From positions 280,770 through 344,769 of the IMG/VR virus record IMGVR_UViG_3300024252_000004: 64,000 nt of DNA; one strand, given 5' to 3'. This stretch comes from a virus. Below the pieces are notes generated by a model that ran no database searches, had not been told where the DNA came from, and saw only the letters and a list, made by a program, of their open reading frames with translations. Both the position numbers and the translations under genes were made by a program. Each line of letters starts with the position of its first letter. Position 1 is the stretch's first letter. Positions 4,546-34,339 of this stretch are shown here, piece by piece.

Positions 4546-4808
4546 GCATTTTTTCTAAAGTTATTGGCGAGAATATCTTTTTTAAACCAGAATTGTATCC
4601 GAGCGGAAATTGCTATGCTCATTATCCTTTGTCAACAAGGGATGTGAGTATTATATTGGAATATGATACGGGAAGATTTATCTATTACAAAATGAGACCA
4701 AGTGGATATGTTACAGGTGATCATATTTGTGCTGGGAAATTTTCGTCATACCTTTCCGAAAAGGAAAAGAAGTCATTTATTGAAATGTTGGAAAAGATCG
4801 AATCGTAG
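4542..4808 (+). CDS. hypothetical protein
   Basis: 88-aa ORF; 3' end overlaps tRNA start. Confidence 0.4.
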   Translation: MSIFSKVIGENIFFKPELYPSGNCYAHYPLSTRDVSIILEYDTGRFIYYKMRPSGYVTGDHICAGKFSSYLSEKEKKSFIEMLEKIES

Positions 4809-7457: not shown

Positions 7458-8146
7458 AATGAATTCGATCATATTGGAAATTAAAGCTGCCGAAGGCGGC
7501 ACAGATGCAAAGCTCCTTGTTGATGAACAGTTGGCCATTTATAGGAGATACTGTTCTCGGAGGTCTCTTTGAGTTAGCTCTCTTAGATTCCAGAAGCGGT
7601 TTTATCAGATGCAGAGTCAGCGGCAAAAACGTCAAAAAACATTTTAGGCATGAGCCTGGAGGCCACAGATGGCAAAGGGTTCCTCCGACAGAGAGACGAG
7701 GAAGGGTTCATACTTCTACGATCACTGTCGCTGTCCTACCGGAAGTAACTGAATCTGAAGTTAAGATTAGCGAAAAAGATTTAGAATGGAAAGCCTTTAG
7801 GGGTTCTGGTCCCGGCGGTCAGCATAGAAACAAAACTGATTCTGCTGTGTCGCTTCACCATAAGCCTACTGGAATCAAGATCCGTTCTGAATCTCAAAAG
7901 AGTCAGAAGCAGAATAAGGACACCGCTCTTGCAATATTGAGAGCGAGGTTGCATTCTGAGCAGAGAGAGTCTCAGTCTTTGCGACGCAGTAATATGAGGA
8001 AGAGCCAAGTGGGCTCAGGTATGCGCGCCGACAAAATCAGGACGATCAGGTTGCAGGACGGACAAGTTACGGATCACAACACTGGAAAAAGAATCTCTGC
8101 GAAAAAATATTTGCGCGGAGACTTGGAAGGTCTATTTGAAAAGTAA
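7458..8146 (+). CDS. class I peptide chain release factor, RF1-like (PxT = PPT), lacking domain 1; needs +1 frameshift at 7570 and has an additional +1 frame break at 7499/7501
   Basis: SD GGAGG + ATG 7458; MNSIILEIKAAEGG (frame 0) / TDAKLLVDEQLAIYRRYCSRRSL (frame +1, stops at UGA 7570) / ELALLDSRSGF..GGHRWQRVPPTERRGRVHTS..SGPGGQHRNKTDSA..DKIRTIRLQDGQVTDH (frame +2) align contiguously to RF1. Confidence 0.75.
7559..7573 (+). other. prfB-type programmed +1 ribosomal frameshift site
   Basis: GGAGG-UCU-CUU-UGA-G: SD-like element 3 nt upstream of CUU UGA, same architecture and spacing as E. coli prfB AGGGGG-UAU-CUU-UGA-C. Confidence 0.7.
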
Positions 8147-9822: not shown

Positions 9823-10878
9823 GTGTATTACGGTGATGAAAAGAAGAAAGAAATTATGAGAAGCATTCTTCCGTCCAAATGGGCAAAGGGTGCAAGAGAA
9901 GACAAAAGAGATCTCAACAAAAAGGTGCGAAGAACAGCTAAGAATGCTCTTCGTCATATTCGGGATGCAGAAGATTGGGATGACTCAAGCTTTGATTTCT
10001 GGGATGACGGACAGGATGAGCGTAGCTCGATTGTGTGGAACAGACGAGGGGCTGACAAGCTCTCTCACTTCATGCGCTGGGCCGAGCACACTGCCAAGGA
10101 TATTCCCGATGGGGAAAAGATGGGGTACATCAAAGGACTACTTCCCGGTAAGGGAGTAATCTTTGATCACGCTTGTGGTCACCTTGAGCACCTCGATGGC
10201 TTTGATAGCGACACCTATATCTGGAGTTCTTACTGGAGAAGAAGAGATAAGGATGTTCTTAGCAGAGCAGATCTAATTCGTCTTCTTGAGAAGGTTTGTG
10301 AGGTTCGCAAGTTCCACGGTTACCTTAACGATGCAATTAAGAAGCGTCATAAGAAGACTTATTGGCGTCGCGTTCTTCGCATCGAAGAGTACAATCATTA
10401 TAAGACTGCGCGGATTGGTGGCGAAATAGTGAAGGTTAGTCCTCCCGAAGTAAGGGTAAGGTACCATACTGACTCTCAGGATAAGACCATTGCACCTCGT
10501 CAGCTTATGGGTATGTACGACGTTGAGAATTTCGTTGATGATATTATTTGCGTTTCCAAGTGCAAAGAGTGGATTGATAAGTCTGGGTACCGAAGTCGGG
10601 TCAGAAATCCAAACGTAAGATATTCTTGGGAGCAGGGTTCCTACCGGTTTATGGACGGGAAGGTTCCCAATCCTGATTACCATCCCGAATGGATTGAGAC
10701 TGTCAAATACTTCATCGAAGATTTTCTTAAAAATACTCATAAGCTTAAGGGGTTCAGCGTCTTTACTTCGTTCAGAAGAAGAACTTATGATTGGGAGAAC
10801 TCAGATCCGCGCAGGTCTAAATTTGTCTGGAGGACGGACAGAGTTAAGCGTAGCTACGTCTACGATTGGAAACTTTAA
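9823..10878 (+). CDS. hypothetical protein (351 aa)
   Basis: GTG start 6 nt after SD GGAGG; no recognisable domain. Confidence 0.5.
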   Translation: MYYGDEKKKEIMRSILPSKWAKGAREDKRDLNKKVRRTAKNALRHIRDAEDWDDSSFDFWDDGQDERSSIVWNRRGADKLSHFMRWAEHTAKDIPDGEKMGYIKGLLPGKGVIFDHACGHLEHLDGFDSDTYIWSSYWRRRDKDVLSRADLIRLLEKVCEVRKFHGYLNDAIKKRHKKTYWRRVLRIEEYNHYKTARIGGEIVKVSPPEVRVRYHTDSQDKTIAPRQLMGMYDVENFVDDIICVSKCKEWIDKSGYRSRVRNPNVRYSWEQGSYRFMDGKVPNPDYHPEWIETVKYFIEDFLKNTHKLKGFSVFTSFRRRTYDWENSDPRRSKFVWRTDRVKRSYVYDWKL

Positions 10879-12472: not shown

Positions 12473-12779
12473 AGAGCTTAGAGCAAATCCCGAAGGAGCT
12501 ATTATGCTTCTTGAGGCAATGACAAATGTTGTGAGGCCATGGGAAAGTTTAAGAAGCGAAGGTCAGTCTGTCATGCACGCATATAGAAGGCTTACCGCGA
12601 TGGGTGTAGAGGTTGCTTTAATCGAAAGCAGCGCACCCACATGGATTCTAACTATTGGAGGCGAACGTTTTACAGGCGGCAAAGTCTTCAATAGAAAGGG
12701 TGCCGAAGTTGAAGCTAAGGCTTTGCTTGATGCAGAGTTAGCAGAGCGAGGTTTTGTTCTCATGGATTCGCAAGCATGA
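12435..12779 (+). CDS. hypothetical protein
   Basis: 114-aa ORF. Confidence 0.45.
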   Translation: MSEKESVLETLAEELRANPEGAIMLLEAMTNVVRPWESLRSEGQSVMHAYRRLTAMGVEVALIESSAPTWILTIGGERFTGGKVFNRKGAEVEAKALLDAELAERGFVLMDSQA

Positions 12780-12812
12780 TAAAAGCCGGGTAATCGGTTT
12801 TAGAAGCGAATT

Positions 12813-12841
12813 TTTCTAAATTTCTCGTAGGATGTTATAGA
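12813..12841 (+). promoter_or_regulatory. sigma70-like promoter, family copy 3
   Basis: TTTCTA-N17(AATTTCTCGTAGGATGT)-TATAGA; tRNA-Tyr 62 nt downstream. Confidence 0.55.
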
Positions 12842-12902
12842 AAAAATAGATACGGTTTTGCTTTTAACCTTCGTCATGCGTAGGATAAAAGCACCGTTTA
12901 AT

Positions 12903-12990
12903 GGGTCGTTATCCCGTAGGGGCAGCGGTGGAGACTGTAAATCTCCTGTCATTATTGACTCGGTTGGTTCGACTCCAGCACGGCCCACCA
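12903..12990 (+). tRNA. tRNA-Tyr(GTA), class II, CCA encoded
   Basis: acceptor GGGTCGT/ACGGCCC, anticodon stem GGAGA/TCTCC loop CTGTAAA, long variable arm, T-loop TTCGACT. Confidence 0.7.
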
Positions 12991-13130
12991 TATTTGTGAA
13001 GCGATACATCGATAAACACTGACCACGGCTACGGGCGGGATGATGAAGGGGCAGTAGCCTGTCCCAAATCGCTCACAAATATACTTTCGGGACAGTCTCT
13101 TGTAGGAAAGATTACGCGCGTGACATCGGT

Positions 13131-13664
13131 TCAATTCCGATCTGTTCCACCACTGAATCGTCCATCACCTGATAGGAAGTGATCAACTTCGTGACAGGTC
13201 GGACAAACAATCTCTAAGTTCTCAATCGAGTTATTCTCTCTATTGCGATCTTTATGATGAACTTGTAGAACTTCAGGATGCTTATCGTATCCGCAATGAG
13301 AGCATATCTGTTCAAGATGCTCTTTTGCAGTTTTGCGATAATCCTTTCGGTTATCAGTATAGTGCGGCGGATGAATTTCTTTTATCCCTCCTATCCTTTG
13401 TGCAATATCTTTGCAATTTCTTGAGCAAAAAACAAATCCGCTTTTAGATGCAGCAATCTTAGAGGCAGACCTGTAAAAGTCTTTATCACAAATAGCACAA
13501 ACACAATTTGGCTTTTGTATCTTCGGATTTTTCTTTCTCCATTCAAAAGAGCATTTGCGATTGCAAAATTTTGCGTTTCCTCTGTTTAATTCTTTAATTT
13601 CTGCATCAAATTGCGTATAACAATTTAAGCAACTTTTCTTAATGGTTCTACCTTTGTAAGACAT
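13131..13664 (-). CDS. HNH homing endonuclease
   Basis: HHKDRNRENNSIENLEIVCPTCH HNH motif plus multiple CxxC pairs; sits between tRNA-Tyr and tRNA-Cys. Confidence 0.75.
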   Translation of the reverse strand: MSYKGRTIKKSCLNCYTQFDAEIKELNRGNAKFCNRKCSFEWRKKNPKIQKPNCVCAICDKDFYRSASKIAASKSGFVFCSRNCKDIAQRIGGIKEIHPPHYTDNRKDYRKTAKEHLEQICSHCGYDKHPEVLQVHHKDRNRENNSIENLEIVCPTCHEVDHFLSGDGRFSGGTDRN

Positions 13665-13685
13665 AATAAATTCCTTTAATTATAT

Positions 13686-13761
13686 GGGGCCTTAGCTCAA
13701 TTGGGAGAGCGCGACATTTGCAATGTCGAGGTCGCGAGTTCGATCCTCGCAGGCTCCACCA
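13686..13761 (+). tRNA. tRNA-Cys(GCA), CCA encoded
   Basis: acceptor GGGGCCT/AGGCTCC, anticodon stem CGACA/TGTCG loop TTTGCAA, T arm GCGAG-TTCGATC-CTCGC. Confidence 0.7.
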
Positions 13762-13821
13762 TGCAAATCAATTATACTCCACCGCAGAGTATAACACATA
13801 ATTAAAGTAAGACTACACATT

Positions 13822-13843
13822 CTCCCTTAGCTCAGTTGGTTAA
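13822..13843 (+). pseudogene. tRNA 5' remnant (acceptor + D arm start CTCCCTTAGCTCAGTTGGTTAA) truncated by HNH gene
   Basis: canonical tRNA 5' end with no matching D-stem 3' strand, anticodon or T arm; overlaps the stop of minus-strand HNH 13840-14325. Confidence 0.45.
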
Positions 13844-14325
13844 TTCCATTTTGGTTTTAACTTATAGTGTTCTTCTCTGTGGCAGTTTGCACACAGCATG
13901 ACGCATTTGTCAAGTTCAGCTTTAATGGTATCCCAGGCATAAGTATTCCCAGAGCCAATGCCGAAATCTTTCTCGTTTGGTTCTAAATGGTGAAAATCAA
14001 ATGCATCAATACATTTGTCATATCCACAATACTCGCACTTTTCTCCTTTATATTCTACGGCTTTAATCTTACACTGCCATCTTCTTTTTTGCACATAGTA
14101 CTTGTTCTTACACTTTTTTGAGCAAAATTTTCCTGAAGATGGCAAGTCACACAAATGCCATGTGCATTCCAAAGCTTTTGACTTTTCTTTATTTTTTGGA
14201 GAAGTTGATAGTCCAAATTTCTTAAGCCAATGACGAACATTTGTTTGCGAGCAAGATAGCTCTTTTGCGATTTCTCTGGTAGAATAATTATTATCAACTA
14301 ATAACTTTAAAGTTTCTAATTCCAT
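13840..14325 (-). CDS. HNH endonuclease with N-terminal HTH
   Basis: FDFHHLEPNEKD...LCANCHREEH HNH motif; N-terminal STREIAKELSCSQTNVRHWLKKFG helix-turn-helix. Confidence 0.75.
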   Translation of the reverse strand: MELETLKLLVDNNYSTREIAKELSCSQTNVRHWLKKFGLSTSPKNKEKSKALECTWHLCDLPSSGKFCSKKCKNKYYVQKRRWQCKIKAVEYKGEKCEYCGYDKCIDAFDFHHLEPNEKDFGIGSGNTYAWDTIKAELDKCVMLCANCHREEHYKLKPKWN

Positions 14326-14331
14326 AGTTCA

Positions 14332-14351
14332 CCTCATGTAATTATATGAGG
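14332..14351 (-). promoter_or_regulatory. hairpin sequestering the RBS of HNH gene 13840-14325
   Basis: on mRNA CCTCAT-ATAATTAC-ATGAGG with SD GAGGTG inside the 3' arm, ATG 6 nt downstream. Confidence 0.45.
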
Positions 14352-14365
14352 TTAATAATAGATGA

Positions 14366-14452
14366 GCTACTGTGGCCGAGCGGTTGAAGGCAGCAGGCTG
14401 TTAACCTGCCTGGGAAACCACATCATAGGTTCAAATCCTATCGGTAGCGCCA
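14366..14452 (+). tRNA. tRNA with tRNA-Ser body (D arm TGGCCGAGCGGTTGAAGGC, long variable arm, G73) but anticodon GTT
   Basis: acceptor GCTACTG/CGGTAGC, anticodon stem GCAGG/CCTGC loop CTGTTAA (one change from Ser GCT loop CTGCTAA), CCA encoded. Confidence 0.5.
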
Positions 14453-14479
14453 AATTTAATAAGAGGCTGAACATGAGCC

Positions 14480-14728
14480 TTGCAGGGAGAGCCAATTATT
14501 AAAGAATCAGATAAGAATAATGGAGTATGCTATCCGGCAACGTCGATCAAAGTGATTCCCCTTGTTGAGGGAATTAGATTGCGGCCGAAGATGTACGGTT
14601 TGACAGAAGATCAGGTATCCAATATGAGTGATCAGATGATCAAAGATTGGTACGAAGATTGTGAAAACGTATGCGAGCATGATTTAGATATTGCGAGAGT
14701 GTCGGACACCTTTGATCCCAGCGGGTAG
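14480..14728 (+). CDS. hypothetical protein; residues 24-45 resemble GyrB/topoisomerase N-terminal motif
   Basis: SIKVIPLVEGIRLRPKMYGLTEDQ resembles [24 protein letters not shown]; the rest of the 82-aa product does not. Confidence 0.35.
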   Translation: MQGEPIIKESDKNNGVCYPATSIKVIPLVEGIRLRPKMYGLTEDQVSNMSDQMIKDWYEDCENVCEHDLDIARVSDTFDPSG

Positions 14729-14978
14729 GGGTCGAGATAACGCGGTCAAGTAGAGTTCCCAAAGGGCTGTTTATGATACGGTCACAATCGAACGACCTAG
14801 AGTTATACCTGATTTGAATTCGGGCAATGGGCTGGCCAATAGTCCTTAGACGTAATCCTGTTGAAGTCGTCGCAGGTCCCACTTGAGGGTTGTTTTGGAC
14901 ATGGGTGCTTAGTGTCAACGGCAAGCACGATTGGCTGTTAACCAATTAGTTTGGGTTCAAATCCCAAAGTACCCGCCA
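14721..14978 (+). ncRNA. ORF-free structured RNA with tRNA-like 3' end (unknown class)
   Basis: no ORF of 60 aa or more; 3' TTGGG-TTCAAAT-CCCAA + AGTACCC-G-CCA; 5' GCGGGTA can pair with TACCCGC. Confidence 0.3.
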
Positions 14979-15003
14979 CAAAGTATCAAAAGGTTTTGTC
15001 ATT

Positions 15004-15288
15004 ATGAAAGAGATTTTTGGACCTTGGGTTAAGGCTGCAAGGTGTTTGGATTGCGACGACGGCTTTAAAAGCAAATGGAGTGCCTGGATTGAAGAAAGTG
15101 ATTTTGATACAGAGGAAGAGATGTTGGGGCAAACTCTCATCTGCCGCTCATGTGGCTCGATATTCAAATGGCAAAAAGCTGTCGGAAGAAAAATCAAAAC
15201 GTATAAAACATCTTGGATTTTTCTTGACAAATTGGTTAAAAGCGAATGGGAATGGCGACACGAAGCTGTTCTGGAAGGAATAAATTGA
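15004..15288 (+). CDS. hypothetical Cys-containing protein
   Basis: 94-aa ORF, CLDCDD..CRSCG. Confidence 0.4.
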   Translation: MKEIFGPWVKAARCLDCDDGFKSKWSAWIEESDFDTEEEMLGQTLICRSCGSIFKWQKAVGRKIKTYKTSWIFLDKLVKSEWEWRHEAVLEGIN

Positions 15289-21690: not shown

Positions 21691-21768
21691 GGGGAATTAG
21701 CTCAATTGGCCAGAGCGGCAGATTCTAGACCTGCGACAGTGTGGGTTCGAGCCCCACATTCCCTACCA
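21691..21768 (+). tRNA. candidate amber-suppressor tRNA, anticodon CTA, tRNA-Trp-like body
   Basis: acceptor GGGGAAT/ATTCCCT, D arm GCTC-AATTGGCCA-GAGC, anticodon loop TTCTAGA on stem GCAGA/CCTGC (A-C mismatch at 31-39), 6-nt variable, T arm GTGGG-TTCGAGC-CCCAC, CCA encoded. Confidence 0.5.
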
Positions 21769-22027: not shown

Positions 22028-22126
22028 GGGATAGTTGCTGACAGGTAGGCAGCTACTTATTTGGAAGCGTTCTTAAGGGGCCTGCCTCCTATAGATCGGG
22101 GGGTTCGATTCCCCTACGGAGTACCA
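22028..22126 (+). other. tRNA-like 3' fragment (T arm + acceptor 3' strand + CCA) without a matching 5' acceptor strand
   Basis: GGGGG-TTCGATT-CCCCT then ACGGAGT-A-CCA at 22097-22126; no complementary 5' strand within 100 nt upstream. Confidence 0.3.
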
Positions 22127-22492
22127 CAGACAAGGCAATTAATTGAAAGGAAGTTGGCTTAAAGGCAGCCATCTTTTAAAGAGTGAGGTCCAGACTCCTG
22201 GGAATTATGGCAACAGAACGAATGCTATCAAGAGTAAGTTCTGCGAAAGAGAATGAGAAGCTGTCAGGCTCAAAGTTCTCGGGAGGTATAGCAACTGTGA
22301 GATTGTAAGAACCGTGGAGACTCACGGCGTTTCGGGCGAGCCTCTGTAGTAGCTGTAGAGAGTTGAGAAACTTGCAGTGAATGATGACGCTTAGTAGCCT
22401 CTTTGGCGTTATAGCACACTTTCAATTTTGCCTTAGTCTCCGGTTGATTTATTTTTTTGATATGCGTAAGATGATTACGCAAGGAGTTTGCG

Positions 22493-22585
22493 ATGTTCGC
22501 ACGTAGAGAAATTACAAATTTTCGATTTATTACTGTCTCCCGATTTATGTTTGTCGGTAGAGACGGTGACGTGTGGCATATCTGA
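22493..22585 (+). CDS. small ORF (30 aa) with strong SD in an otherwise ORF-free ~490-nt stretch
   Basis: AAGGAG 22481-22486 then ATG 22493. Confidence 0.3.
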   Translation: MFARREITNFRFITVSRFMFVGRDGDVWHI

Positions 22586-22618
22586 ACTAAAATATTCGGG
22601 TGCCTCACACAAAAATGA

Positions 22619-28928: not shown

Positions 28929-29225
28929 GGGGGTATCAGGTCTGTTTCAGACCGATTCCGGGCGGCCCACACGATCAGTGGGACGGGTGAGAGGATTGCT
29001 CACTGCCCCCGCCAGTTTTGGGAATATATAGGCCAAGGTACAACGGCCGCTTTCAAAGCAGTATTCATGATATCTGCGCAGGAGAATTACCTGCTATTCC
29101 CGCCAGTTAGATTAGTTTTGGGGAGTGGGTGGACTGGTTCGAGTCCAGATAGAAAGGTTATACCCTACCCGCATGGCAAAGGATCGCGCGTCCGACTTTA
29201 GGTTCGAATCCTAAACTCTCCACCA
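28929..29225 (+). ncRNA. ~300-nt ORF-free structured RNA with tRNA-like 3' end and alanine-identity-like G3-U70/A73 (tmRNA-like? class unknown)
   Basis: 5' GGGGG..; 3' TTAGG-TTCGAAT-CCTAA + ACTCTCC-A-CCA; internal second T-arm-like GGACTGG-TTCGAGT-CCAG; no canonical tag reading frame. Confidence 0.3.
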
Positions 29226-34006: not shown

Positions 34007-34339
34007 TTACGAGAGAAGGTCTTCTTCGACAATTGATTCTACCATGCATCTAACGTCCCAAAAGAGTGGGGACTTAAACCATTCCCCTCTTTTGACGTAC
34101 GATGAAACAAGTCTCTGATGGCACTCTTTCTCTAATTTGTAAACCTTCTCAGAAGGTAATGAATAGATTTCTATCAGTTCCAATGATTCAGAAGAACCAG
34201 TTTGTAACTGTTTCAGTCGCTTGGCAGGGTTTTTGCTAACACCGATTTTAAGGTCAGTGCCATTACTTATGATGTAAAGGTATGAAGTTTCCATGAGAAC
34301 ACCTAATATTTCGGGTAGGATTGTGAGTGAGGGTATCAT
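34007..34339 (-). CDS. T5orf172/GIY-YIG-like domain protein
   Basis: YLYIISNGTDLKIGVSKNPAKRLKQLQTG matches T5orf172 (MUG113) motif; only other minus-strand gene in this region. Confidence 0.5.
   Translation of the reverse strand: MIPSLTILPEILGVLMETSYLYIISNGTDLKIGVSKNPAKRLKQLQTGSSESLELIEIYSLPSEKVYKLEKECHQRLVSSYVKRGEWFKSPLFWDVRCMVESIVEEDLLS

Follow-up and report, generated by a model that had tools for sequence, protein, structure and literature searches.

How does the 5′ end of a tRNA gene come to break off at the stop codon of a nuclease gene that is encoded on the opposite strand? The question is raised by a viral DNA of 64,000 nucleotides (nt) (positions 280,770 to 344,769 of IMG/VR record IMGVR_UViG_3300024252_000004; the whole stretch is referred to as the window, and positions are those of the window), where two genes for HNH endonucleases, here HNH#1 and HNH#2, lie on the minus strand of an otherwise plus-strand phage tRNA array. 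Such arrays are viewed as modules for counter-defence and codon supply, with gain, loss and swapping of their tRNAs only partly understood. The answer favoured here, and thought to be probably correct, is that two homing-endonuclease genes invaded the tRNA array of a giant phage and that the tRNA fragment at the end of HNH#2 is a relic, the footprint of one-sided break repair in a tRNA-Asn gene. The features pertinent to the argument are the following.

13821 to 13842, plus strand: relic, positions 1 to 21 (22 nt) of a Bacteroidota-type tRNA-Asn(GUU), 22 of 22 bases as in complete genes
13840 to 14325, minus strand: HNH#2, gene for an endonuclease of 161 amino acids (aa) with helix-turn-helix (HTH) and HNH/zinc-finger domains (PF01844, phrog_2255)
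14331 to 14352, minus strand: leader hairpin of HNH#2, its 3′ arm holding the Shine-Dalgarno sequence GAGG (fold −8.6 kcal/mol, z −2.4)
13772 to 13794, no strand assigned: 8-bp hairpin TTATACTC-N7-GAGTATAA between tRNA-Ala and the relic (sequence and fold)
13131 to 13664, minus strand: HNH#1, gene for a 177-aa HNH endonuclease (PF13392, phrog_1271)
13089 to 13152, plus strand: 64-nt tRNA-like element without anticodon arm (sequence, cloverleaf fold, scan for T arm and ACCA)
13686 to 13761, plus strand: intact tRNA-Ala(UGC) (ARAGORN; Rfam, 67.5 bits)
14366 to 14452, plus strand: tRNA with GTT (Asn) anticodon on a long-variable-arm (type II) scaffold (ARAGORN; Rfam, 59.4 bits)

A truncated tRNA-Asn and two antisense nuclease genes

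An initial annotation, made from the sequence without database searches, had described a perfect tRNA 5′ end at 13822 to 13843 (CTCCCTTAGCTCAGTTGGTTAA). That string has no second occurrence in the window, even with up to 3 mismatches allowed (0 expected by chance), and its tRNA origin is borne out, with limits displaced by one base: identity to tRNA spans 13821 (T) to 13842, base 13843 being A against G22 in the tRNA. The break is between A21 and G22, i.e. at the boundary of D loop and D stem, G22 being the first base of the D stem's 3′ strand. A 13-mer from it, TAGCTCAGTTGGT, was counted in 516 kb: called tRNAs contain it 17 times and the sequence outside tRNAs 6 times, where 0.015 occurrences are expected, and counts so far above expectation argue that the tRNA likeness of the fragment is not due to chance. 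All 6 occurrences outside tRNAs are in HNH-family loci, four at an HNH stop codon and one approximately 150 nt upstream of an HNH start.

From the first loci the isotype was ambiguous (Met, Asn or Val), and it was settled by a collection-wide search with a 19-mer and a 20-mer. The 19-mer matched hundreds of genuine tRNA genes, the versions that start with GCT being mostly tRNA-Met. The 20-mer TCTCCCTTAGCTCAGTTGGT, which includes U1, has 26 occurrences, of which 23 are complete tRNA-Asn(GTT) genes and the other three rearranged copies; in the sampled collections every complete gene that begins with TCTCCCTTAGCTCAGTTGGT is tRNA-Asn(GTT). The bacterial genes among these are all from Bacteroidota (four Flavobacteriales metagenome-assembled genomes, Owenweeksia, Crocinitomicaceae and Chitinophagaceae), the Flavobacteriales-type gene starting TCTCCCTTAGCTCAGTTGGTTAGAGC.... 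The 22 of 22 identity extends to tRNA-Asn in viral contigs also, and none of the viral contigs with an intact tRNA-Asn is related to the window phage. The host-type character of the relic hints at a Flavobacteriales host, and a member of that order is probably the host of this uncultured phage. Another shortened gene of the same type was encountered at 9969 to 10008 of locus L215, a viral contig with a sample number (3300024262) close to those holding the window phage (JGI 3300024258, 3300024259 and 3300024339, besides ENA ERZ2724xxxx to 2725xxxx): there a Bacteroidota-type tRNA-Asn is cut to 40 nt, D-loop GGTT being joined to T-loop GGTTCGA (TCTCCCTTAGCTCAGTTGGTTCGAACCCAAAAGGGAGAGC).

That the fragment has no 3′ half, as had been stated at the outset, withstood several kinds of search. 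The remaining 54 nt of tRNA-Asn have no match in the window at up to 3 mismatches, and a scan of the window for a T arm with a strand complementary to TCTCCCT found no partner. No tRNA that includes the fragment, and so none spanning a splice (named in the initial annotation as the contrary case), was called by ARAGORN with introns of up to 1500 nt or with lowered thresholds, the only calls being spurious ones on the minus strand. Rfam gives no tRNA match at the fragment and no intron at E up to 1 in 12700 to 15100, and at gathering score no group I or II intron in the whole window. The exact 22-mer has no match in IMG/VR, and in folding no stable structure involves the fragment, which comprises tRNA positions 1 to 21 only and so is without a complete cloverleaf or anticodon. 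Because the rest of tRNA-Asn is absent from the window, and there is no T arm with a complementary acceptor strand, the fragment is to be read as a relic of a host-type tRNA-Asn gene and not as half of a working one. Most likely it is without function. Pairing it, as the first of two tRNA halves, with the 3′ end at 13125 to 13152 was considered and rejected since the acceptor strands are not complementary (CTGTTCC and TCTCCCT).

The AT-rich HNH#2 cassette begins exactly where the relic stops. The abutment originally reported is thus real, with the refinement that gene and fragment overlap: the relic's last three bases, TTA (13840 to 13842), are the complement of the TAA stop codon of HNH#2. 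Both minus-strand open reading frames (ORFs) exist as had been proposed, and both encode HNH endonucleases as judged by profile matches, for HNH#2 to PF01844 (24.4 bits, cut-off 21.4) and phrog_2255 (E 8e-31), and for HNH#1 to PF13392 (28.2 bits, cut-off 24.8) and phrog_1271 (E 8e-21). In HNH#2 an N-terminal helix-turn-helix (HTH matches at residues 5 to 40) precedes the C-terminal HNH/zinc-finger domain, for which 30 homologues have invariant CxxC, HH and CxxCH columns (C97, C100, H112, H113, C145, C148 and H149), with N147 and H153 near-invariant. The CxxC...HH...N...CxxCH pattern of HNH#1 is conserved with its homologue in a relative of the window phage, L013 (below). The two proteins are of different families, with 24% identity over the nuclease core. 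From these profiles and the intact catalytic and zinc motifs, a nuclease identity is predicted for both with confidence; Pfam matches are to HNH and HTH only, with no GIY-YIG domain. In base composition both genes are AT-rich outliers in the array: 49 long resident ORFs on the plus strand have a G+C content of 43.1 ± 2.9% (minimum 37.6%), against 36.9% for HNH#1 and 34.8% for HNH#2. Composition and opposite strand both point to a foreign origin of the two genes.

Each of the two ORFs lies between tRNA-type sequence and an intact tRNA, and no intron family is detected, i.e. the genes are free-standing. We infer that they are homing endonuclease genes, with homing meaning site-specific cleavage and gene conversion. 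The hairpin at 14331 to 14352 would regulate HNH#2 by sequestering its ribosome-binding site; hairpins that bury the ribosome-binding site regulate several homing endonuclease genes of phage T4 (PMC2988022). The hairpin at 13772 to 13794, which on the minus strand is followed by a U-rich run, may be the HNH#2 terminator.

HNH#1 also runs into tRNA-type sequence, namely the 64-nt element at 13089 to 13152 that the initial annotation had overlooked. The element's 7-bp acceptor stem includes G3:U70; A73, CCA, a D arm and a canonical T arm are also present, and a 4-bp mini-hairpin takes the place of the anticodon arm (13 nt versus the 23 expected). HNH#1 overlaps its 3′ end by 22 bases, the last 7 codons and TGA stop of the gene corresponding, as reverse complement, to T stem, acceptor strand and CCA of the element, with the TGA in the T-loop. 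In the tRNA set analysed, G3:U70 together with A73 is confined to tRNA-Ala (22 of 24, versus 0 of 807 other tRNAs), hence the reading of the element as Ala-type; it is probably a collapsed tRNA-Ala or an alanine-accepting tRNA-like RNA. A pattern search of IMG/VR for relatives of this anticodon-less element gave 0 matches.

Two observations made in passing concern elements of the same sort. At 29122 to 29225 is a paralogue with G3:U70, A73, CCA and a canonical T arm that shares a ..AAAG..CGCGCGT.. segment with 13089 to 13152; it has no adjacent HNH gene, and near its 5′ end are approximately 40 additional nt similar to the 5′ portion of the tRNA-like domain of tmRNA. Elsewhere, a conserved 61-nt element, GCTCCCTTAGCTCAGTTGGTCAGAGC CTTTAGGGTC GCCGGTTCAAGCCCGGC AGGGAGCA, is built like a tRNA-Met-like gene, with acceptor, D arm and T arm but without the anticodon arm, and has conserved hairpins on its flanks. 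Its presence in 22 IMG/VR contigs (L118, L119, L124, L127, L130 and others) means that anticodon-less tRNA-like genes recur in unrelated phages.

On the other side of each nuclease gene is an intact tRNA in divergent orientation. For HNH#1 it is the tRNA at 13686 to 13761, its 5′ end 21 nt from the HNH#1 start codon; this had been taken for tRNA-Cys and is instead tRNA-Ala(UGC), again with G3:U70. For HNH#2 it is the tRNA at 14366 to 14452, 40 nt from the start codon. A Ser scaffold had been proposed here; the tRNA has G73, a D arm of Ser/Leu/Tyr type and a long variable arm, and its anticodon is GTT (Asn). Its orthologue at 7503 to 7587 of another relative, L099, has 85 nt, and that at 4801 to 4876 of L013 has 76 nt, with the same acceptor and D arm and a short variable region. 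It could be charged by asparaginyl-tRNA synthetase, by seryl-tRNA synthetase, or by both, and is presumed to be a functional replacement for the broken tRNA-Asn. The layout is accordingly an Ala-type tRNA-like element, HNH#1 and tRNA-Ala, followed by a tRNA-Asn relic, HNH#2 and a tRNA with an Asn anticodon, each gene being antisense, starting a few dozen bases away from where an intact tRNA has its 5′ end and extending at the other end into defective tRNA sequence of the same class. Defective tRNA, antisense nuclease gene and intact tRNA of the same class, twice in a row, fit homing into tRNA genes.

Relatives of the phage and of its nuclease genes

The phage genome amounts to 414 kb or more, contigs of up to 414,644 bp encoding an identical HNH#2 protein. 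The window encodes GroEL and tmRNA, its 31 tRNAs called by ARAGORN are spread over 874 to 34845, and 18 of its 19 ORFs of at least 250 aa are on the plus strand. Identical HNH#2 is found in at least 23 metagenome contigs, and the segment from 12780 to 14480 is 100% identical across eight metagenome contigs from several samples, and is therefore real, stable sequence. Among GenBank phages there is no close relative, the matches being tRNA and HNH pieces only (68 to 83% identity), and IMG/VR searches with the flanking proteins gave no syntenic relatives.

Two related contigs are informative. L013, with a flanking protein 68% identical to that of the window, has the same order of Tyr, HNH#1, Ala, spacer, relic, HNH#2 and tRNA(GTT). 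Its HNH#1 (63% aa identity) directly overlaps the 3′ end of tRNA-Tyr, the 64-nt tRNA-like element being absent, and its HNH#2, which has a TGA stop, is frameshifted in a homopolymer run. L099, a contig of 405,912 bp with flanking proteins 47 to 89% identical, is without both HNH#1 and the tRNA-like element, tRNA-Ala coming directly after a conserved hairpin. It also has a deletion of approximately 68 nt that removed spacer and relic and left tRNA-Ala 10 nt from the HNH#2 stop, and its HNH#2 frame is intact but lacks an ATG. HNH#1 is thus polymorphic, being in the window and L013 and not in L099, while HNH#2 is in all three, so that the comparison with HNH-lacking relatives that had initially been called for is available for HNH#1 and has found no counterpart for HNH#2. 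Loss of the relic from L099 argues that it is dispensable, and the decay of HNH#2 by frameshift in L013 and by loss of the start in L099 shows what is expected of a homing gene after fixation.

In two further contigs, L012 and L113, the gene context is different, with no other gene in common with the window, and yet a 66%-identical HNH#2 is accompanied by the same relic, TGCCCCTTAGCTCAG(C)TTGGTT. In these contigs translation continues through the relic to give a C-terminal extension, while in the window and L013 the relic is untranslated save for the stop codon. (L113 was the one match in a search of JGI metagenomes for the junction pattern.) With the relic-HNH#2 junction of the window present also in L013, L012 and L113, the event would be old, i.e. 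the junction would predate the split of these lineages, or else the relic travels with the cassette.

On a broader scale, homologues of HNH#2 form 436 clusters at E <1e-10, with at least 538 loci of the family in IMG/VR, and tRNA genes are within 2 kb in 64 of 69 non-redundant IMG/VR loci of the family, the HNH stop codon in these 69 loci usually abutting or overlapping a tRNA. The association has a preference: tRNA-Asn makes up 28 of 117 immediate neighbours (24%) versus 18 of 340 other tRNAs of the same loci (5%), an odds ratio of 5.6 (Fisher p 8.7e-8). In approximately 10 loci the stop codon is within the first nine bases of a co-oriented tRNA-Asn, and a homologue in Vibrio phage PVA8, with 49% identity, terminates 3 nt short of tRNA-Asn. 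Relatives of HNH#1 are fewer and are also in tRNA arrays, with tRNA-Ala adjoining in L101, L102, L103, L013 and the window.

Neither is the truncation peculiar to this phage. In L091, from an unrelated GC-rich phage, an AT-rich cassette with a 37%-identical member of the HNH#2 family has the same inverted arrangement and is bounded by GTGCCCGTAGCTCAGTTGGTAG, with G beyond the break, the 5′ end of another tRNA, likewise interrupted at that D-loop position; 19 nt separate the HNH start codon from an intact tRNA. Co-oriented members of the family (L019/L016, L049 and L079) have D-loop-truncated relics on their upstream side, and 3′ tRNA relics are present at L029, L044, L089, L098 and L105. Partial tRNAs thus recur as a by-product around these HNH genes, with the D loop as a recurrent junction.

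Some members of the family have features of separate interest. The intact tRNA of L091 (1877 to 1969, 93 nt) has a long variable arm and the anticodon loop TTTTAAG, so that depending on register its anticodon is UUA (ochre suppressor) or UUU, and it too is an unusual class II scaffold beside an inverted HNH gene. In one branch (L028, L029, L035, L038, L042, L052 and others) a D-arm-like relic, TAGTTCAGTTG, is 40 to 60 nt upstream of the HNH start. After it comes TATAAATA, the consensus of T4 late promoters, and next a segment complementary to the relic, CTGAACTA-ATG. The TAGTTCAGTTG/CTGAACTA hairpin, apparently built from tRNA debris, could block translation of read-through transcripts. At L049 (877 to 1150) and L069 (2491 to 2759), tRNA-Asn genes by HNH#2-family genes contain group I intron-like inserts of approximately 190 to 210 nt, placed after CTGT of the anticodon loop, and are not called by ARAGORN.

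Origin of the junction

On the favoured reading, an HNH#2-type enzyme would have broken a resident host-type tRNA-Asn gene near its D loop, and the break would have been repaired from a donor that carried the nuclease gene beside its own tRNA-Asn. Homology would have been confined to the tRNA-Asn side, so that the other end would have been joined illegitimately, in a join that kept tRNA positions 1 to 21, lost the rest and left the HNH#2 frame to end on the relic's TTA. The event would date from the common ancestor that the window phage shares with L013, or from an earlier time, with the junction inherited since. Gene identities, relic identity, breakpoint, the family-wide association with tRNA arrays and tRNA-Asn and the presence/absence differences among relatives are direct observations; nuclease activity, target and repair pathway are deduced. 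The possibility initially raised, of insertion into, or recombination within, a tRNA gene, gains support from the 22 of 22 match to tRNA-Asn, from the tie of the family to that same isotype and from the relics at L091 and beside co-oriented members.

Precedents from other phages make such a mechanism plausible. SegB, the product of a free-standing gene in the T4 tRNA cluster, cuts tRNA genes, T2L tRNA-Asn holding its preferred site, and takes adjacent tRNA genes along, replacing the tRNA markers of the recipient (PMC2330249). In T6 the tRNA-Tyr 5′ region recombines with the segB 3′ region (PMC13096335). In engineered crosses with the T4 td intron and its endonuclease I-TevI, one-sided homology leads to a microhomology junction with loss of recipient sequence (PMC2988022), which is the origin proposed for the relic/HNH#2 junction, though here the event is reconstructed from its end product. 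The parallel to SegB extends to the presence of a nuclease gene in a phage tRNA array and to the segB frame ending at a tRNA 5′ end. However, SegB is a GIY-YIG enzyme that recognizes a T-loop motif, whereas the window genes are of the HNH type with breakpoints in the D loop; and segB is co-oriented with the tRNAs, whereas both window genes are antisense. The resemblance would accordingly be one of behaviour and not of ancestry.

Closer in domain type are the F-TflI/II/IV genes of T5, described in PMC2330249 (citing Akulenko et al. 2004) as genes for HNH-family site-specific endonucleases among phage tRNA genes. As HNH genes within a tRNA array they are set beside the window genes by description, and no report was found in the literature that ties the T5 enzymes to truncated tRNA relics or to one isotype. 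In mycobacteriophages, some tRNA clusters include HNH genes as conserved members, for which a role in diversifying the tRNA repertoire has been proposed (PMC6409571); these are of a different phage group, and the likeness to the window genes is one of gene context. In the literature, coverage of which was incomplete, no paper was found on truncated tRNA relics at HNH/tRNA junctions. Integrative elements that target tRNA genes use an integrase and an attP with a replacement tRNA segment, so that the 3′ part of the tRNA is duplicated. They have in common with the present case an invader in a tRNA gene, an intact tRNA kept alongside and a displaced partial copy at the far end, but here the relic is the 5′ part, the agent would be a nuclease with recombination, and the intact tRNA is a different gene.

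As nuclease genes are well known from phage tRNA arrays, the general picture derived from T4 SegB and the T5 F-Tfl enzymes is unchanged. Added to it are an exact identification of relic and breakpoint, an isotype bias in two HNH families, and the paired layout of old defective and new intact tRNA. The locus provides a case at base resolution in which a nuclease gene occupies the precise point of truncation of a host-type tRNA-Asn gene and has an intact replacement on its other side, and the survey reveals a widespread HNH family that is almost confined to phage tRNA arrays, favours tRNA-Asn and repeatedly leaves D-loop-truncated relics. For the uncharacterised HNH#2 enzymes it offers a concrete candidate target, tRNA-Asn DNA around positions 17 to 22.

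Several considerations count against the favoured reading. No HNH#2-free relative with an empty site and an intact tRNA-Asn was found, so insertion at the exact spot lacks direct demonstration. The occurrence of the same relic beside an HNH gene in L012 and L113 means that it may travel with the cassette instead of marking an insertion here. The left neighbour of HNH#1 is untruncated, the tRNA-like element keeping both ends and lacking only the anticodon arm. The cleavage site of a free-standing endonuclease can be far from the site of insertion (PMC2988022), and the breakpoint need not then be the cut site. Finally, between the window and L013 the relic (23 of 24) and the spacer (42 of 50) are far better conserved than the third codon positions of HNH#2 (52%), which is unexpected for neutral debris. 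Possible reasons for this conservation are a role for the relic, as homology arm, binding site or terminator region, and repeated homogenisation against functional tRNA-Asn alleles.

A more ambitious version of the proposal, put forward tentatively, has the two loci as ‘tRNA-swap’ modules. An isotype-specific HNH enzyme (for Asn in the HNH#2 family and for Ala in the HNH#1 family) would break the resident tRNA near the D loop, and repair would install the nuclease gene together with a replacement of the same anticodon, with the old defective copy staying in place and the relic providing a second homology arm for further spread. If true, homing nucleases would be the main engine of tRNA turnover in phage arrays, and there would be a route by which odd scaffolds, e.g. 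the long-arm tRNA with an Asn anticodon, become fixed.

The conservation just mentioned also bears on an unlikely alternative to the relic as debris, namely that it is under selection, either as left homology arm or part of the recognition site for homing of a unit of relic, HNH#2 and replacement tRNA, or as a regulatory 3′ piece of HNH#2. Retention of the same junction in L012 and L113 despite their different gene context would fit this, as would the identity of the relic to tRNA-Asn of likely hosts and other phages, which would offer homology; and relics can evidently be co-opted, the D-arm-like relic of other members pairing with the start-codon region as 5′ arm of a hairpin around TATAAATA. 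However, L099 has dropped the relic with its spacer and kept an otherwise intact HNH#2 frame, the relic that is translated in L012 and L113 contributes no more than a stop codon to the frame in the window and L013, 21 nt would be a very short homology arm, and folding puts the relic in no stable structure.

Improbable, in comparison with one-sided repair, is a truncation independent of the nuclease, by ordinary deletion or tRNA-tRNA recombination, with HNH#2 landing later or already being there. Fragments of tRNAs are common away from HNH genes too, with approximately 100 partial tRNA matches in the surveyed loci and a further 3′ relic in the window itself at 22099 to 22126, and the D-loop-to-T-loop deletion of tRNA-Asn in L215 is in an 11.5-kb locus with no homologue of HNH#1 or HNH#2. 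Yet coincidence would then have to account for a break that falls on the very base where the HNH#2 frame ends and for a relic that supplies its stop, for the same D-loop junction beside a 37%-identical member in an unrelated phage and beside co-oriented members, and for a relic of the very isotype, Asn, to which the family is statistically tied.

The remaining possibility, a functional tRNA of which the fragment would be the 5′ exon or half, with HNH#2 in an intron or with a distant 3′ half, has a parallel in the tRNA-Asn halves at L049 and L069 (approximately 190 to 210 nt apart, near HNH#2-family genes), but with those split in the anticodon loop and this one broken in the D loop, the nuclease gene antisense, a complete different tRNA starting 40 nt past the gene, the fragment missing from L099, and the searches for a 3′ partner by T arm and TCTCCCT complement, by the tRNA-Asn remainder (up to 3 mismatches), by ARAGORN (introns up to 1500 nt) and by Rfam all negative, it is close to refuted within the window.

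Neighbouring tRNAs and structured RNAs

To the left of the nuclease genes are two further features.

12903 to 12990, plus strand: tRNA-Tyr(GTA), left neighbour (ARAGORN)
12991 to 13081, plus strand: structured RNA, a long irregular hairpin, part of the context and outside the nuclease genes (fold and comparison with L099)

The tRNA-Tyr is as initially annotated. A promoter-like motif, GCGTAGGAT..., upstream of it and of the L012 relic was dropped as a candidate since it is not enriched in the window (29 observed versus 27 expected). The structured RNA of approximately 90 nt directly after tRNA-Tyr has no Rfam match and folds together with the next element at −50.7 kcal/mol. Compared with 6808 to 6896 of L099, it has 7 compensatory changes among 31 pairs, with none broken and a near-identical core; it is absent from L013. 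It recalls the small stable RNAs of the T4 tRNA cluster.

Another structured RNA may be present at 14690 to 14830 (L099, 7605 to 7745), a conserved non-coding stretch, GAGAGTGTCGGACACC...GTAGGGG.CGAGATAACGCG..., between two GTT tRNAs, with no Rfam match at E up to 1. The window, unlike L099, has an 82-aa ORF (14480 to 14728) ahead of it.

Further along the array, the isolated tRNA 3′ relic at 22099 to 22126 (GGGGG TTCGATT CCCCT ACGGAGT ACCA) is approximately 100 nt after tRNA-Glu and has no convincing 5′ partner, and the next 490 nt, as far as tRNA-Phe, contain no supported gene. The minus-strand ORF beside it (22270 to 22608) has no family matches and is probably not a gene. A tRNA with a CTA anticodon at 21691 to 21768 (an amber suppressor, labelled ‘Pyl’ by ARAGORN) is kept in L099 (11567 to 11642), which suggests read-through or recoding of TAG in this phage group. 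Lastly, a 110-aa ORF on the minus strand at 34007 to 34339, approximately 420 nt upstream of tRNA-Leu(CAA), has a T5orf172/MUG113 domain (PF13455, E 7e-13) and matches to the PHROG ‘endonuclease’ and ‘homing endonuclease’ families, and is probably a third selfish nuclease gene of the array.

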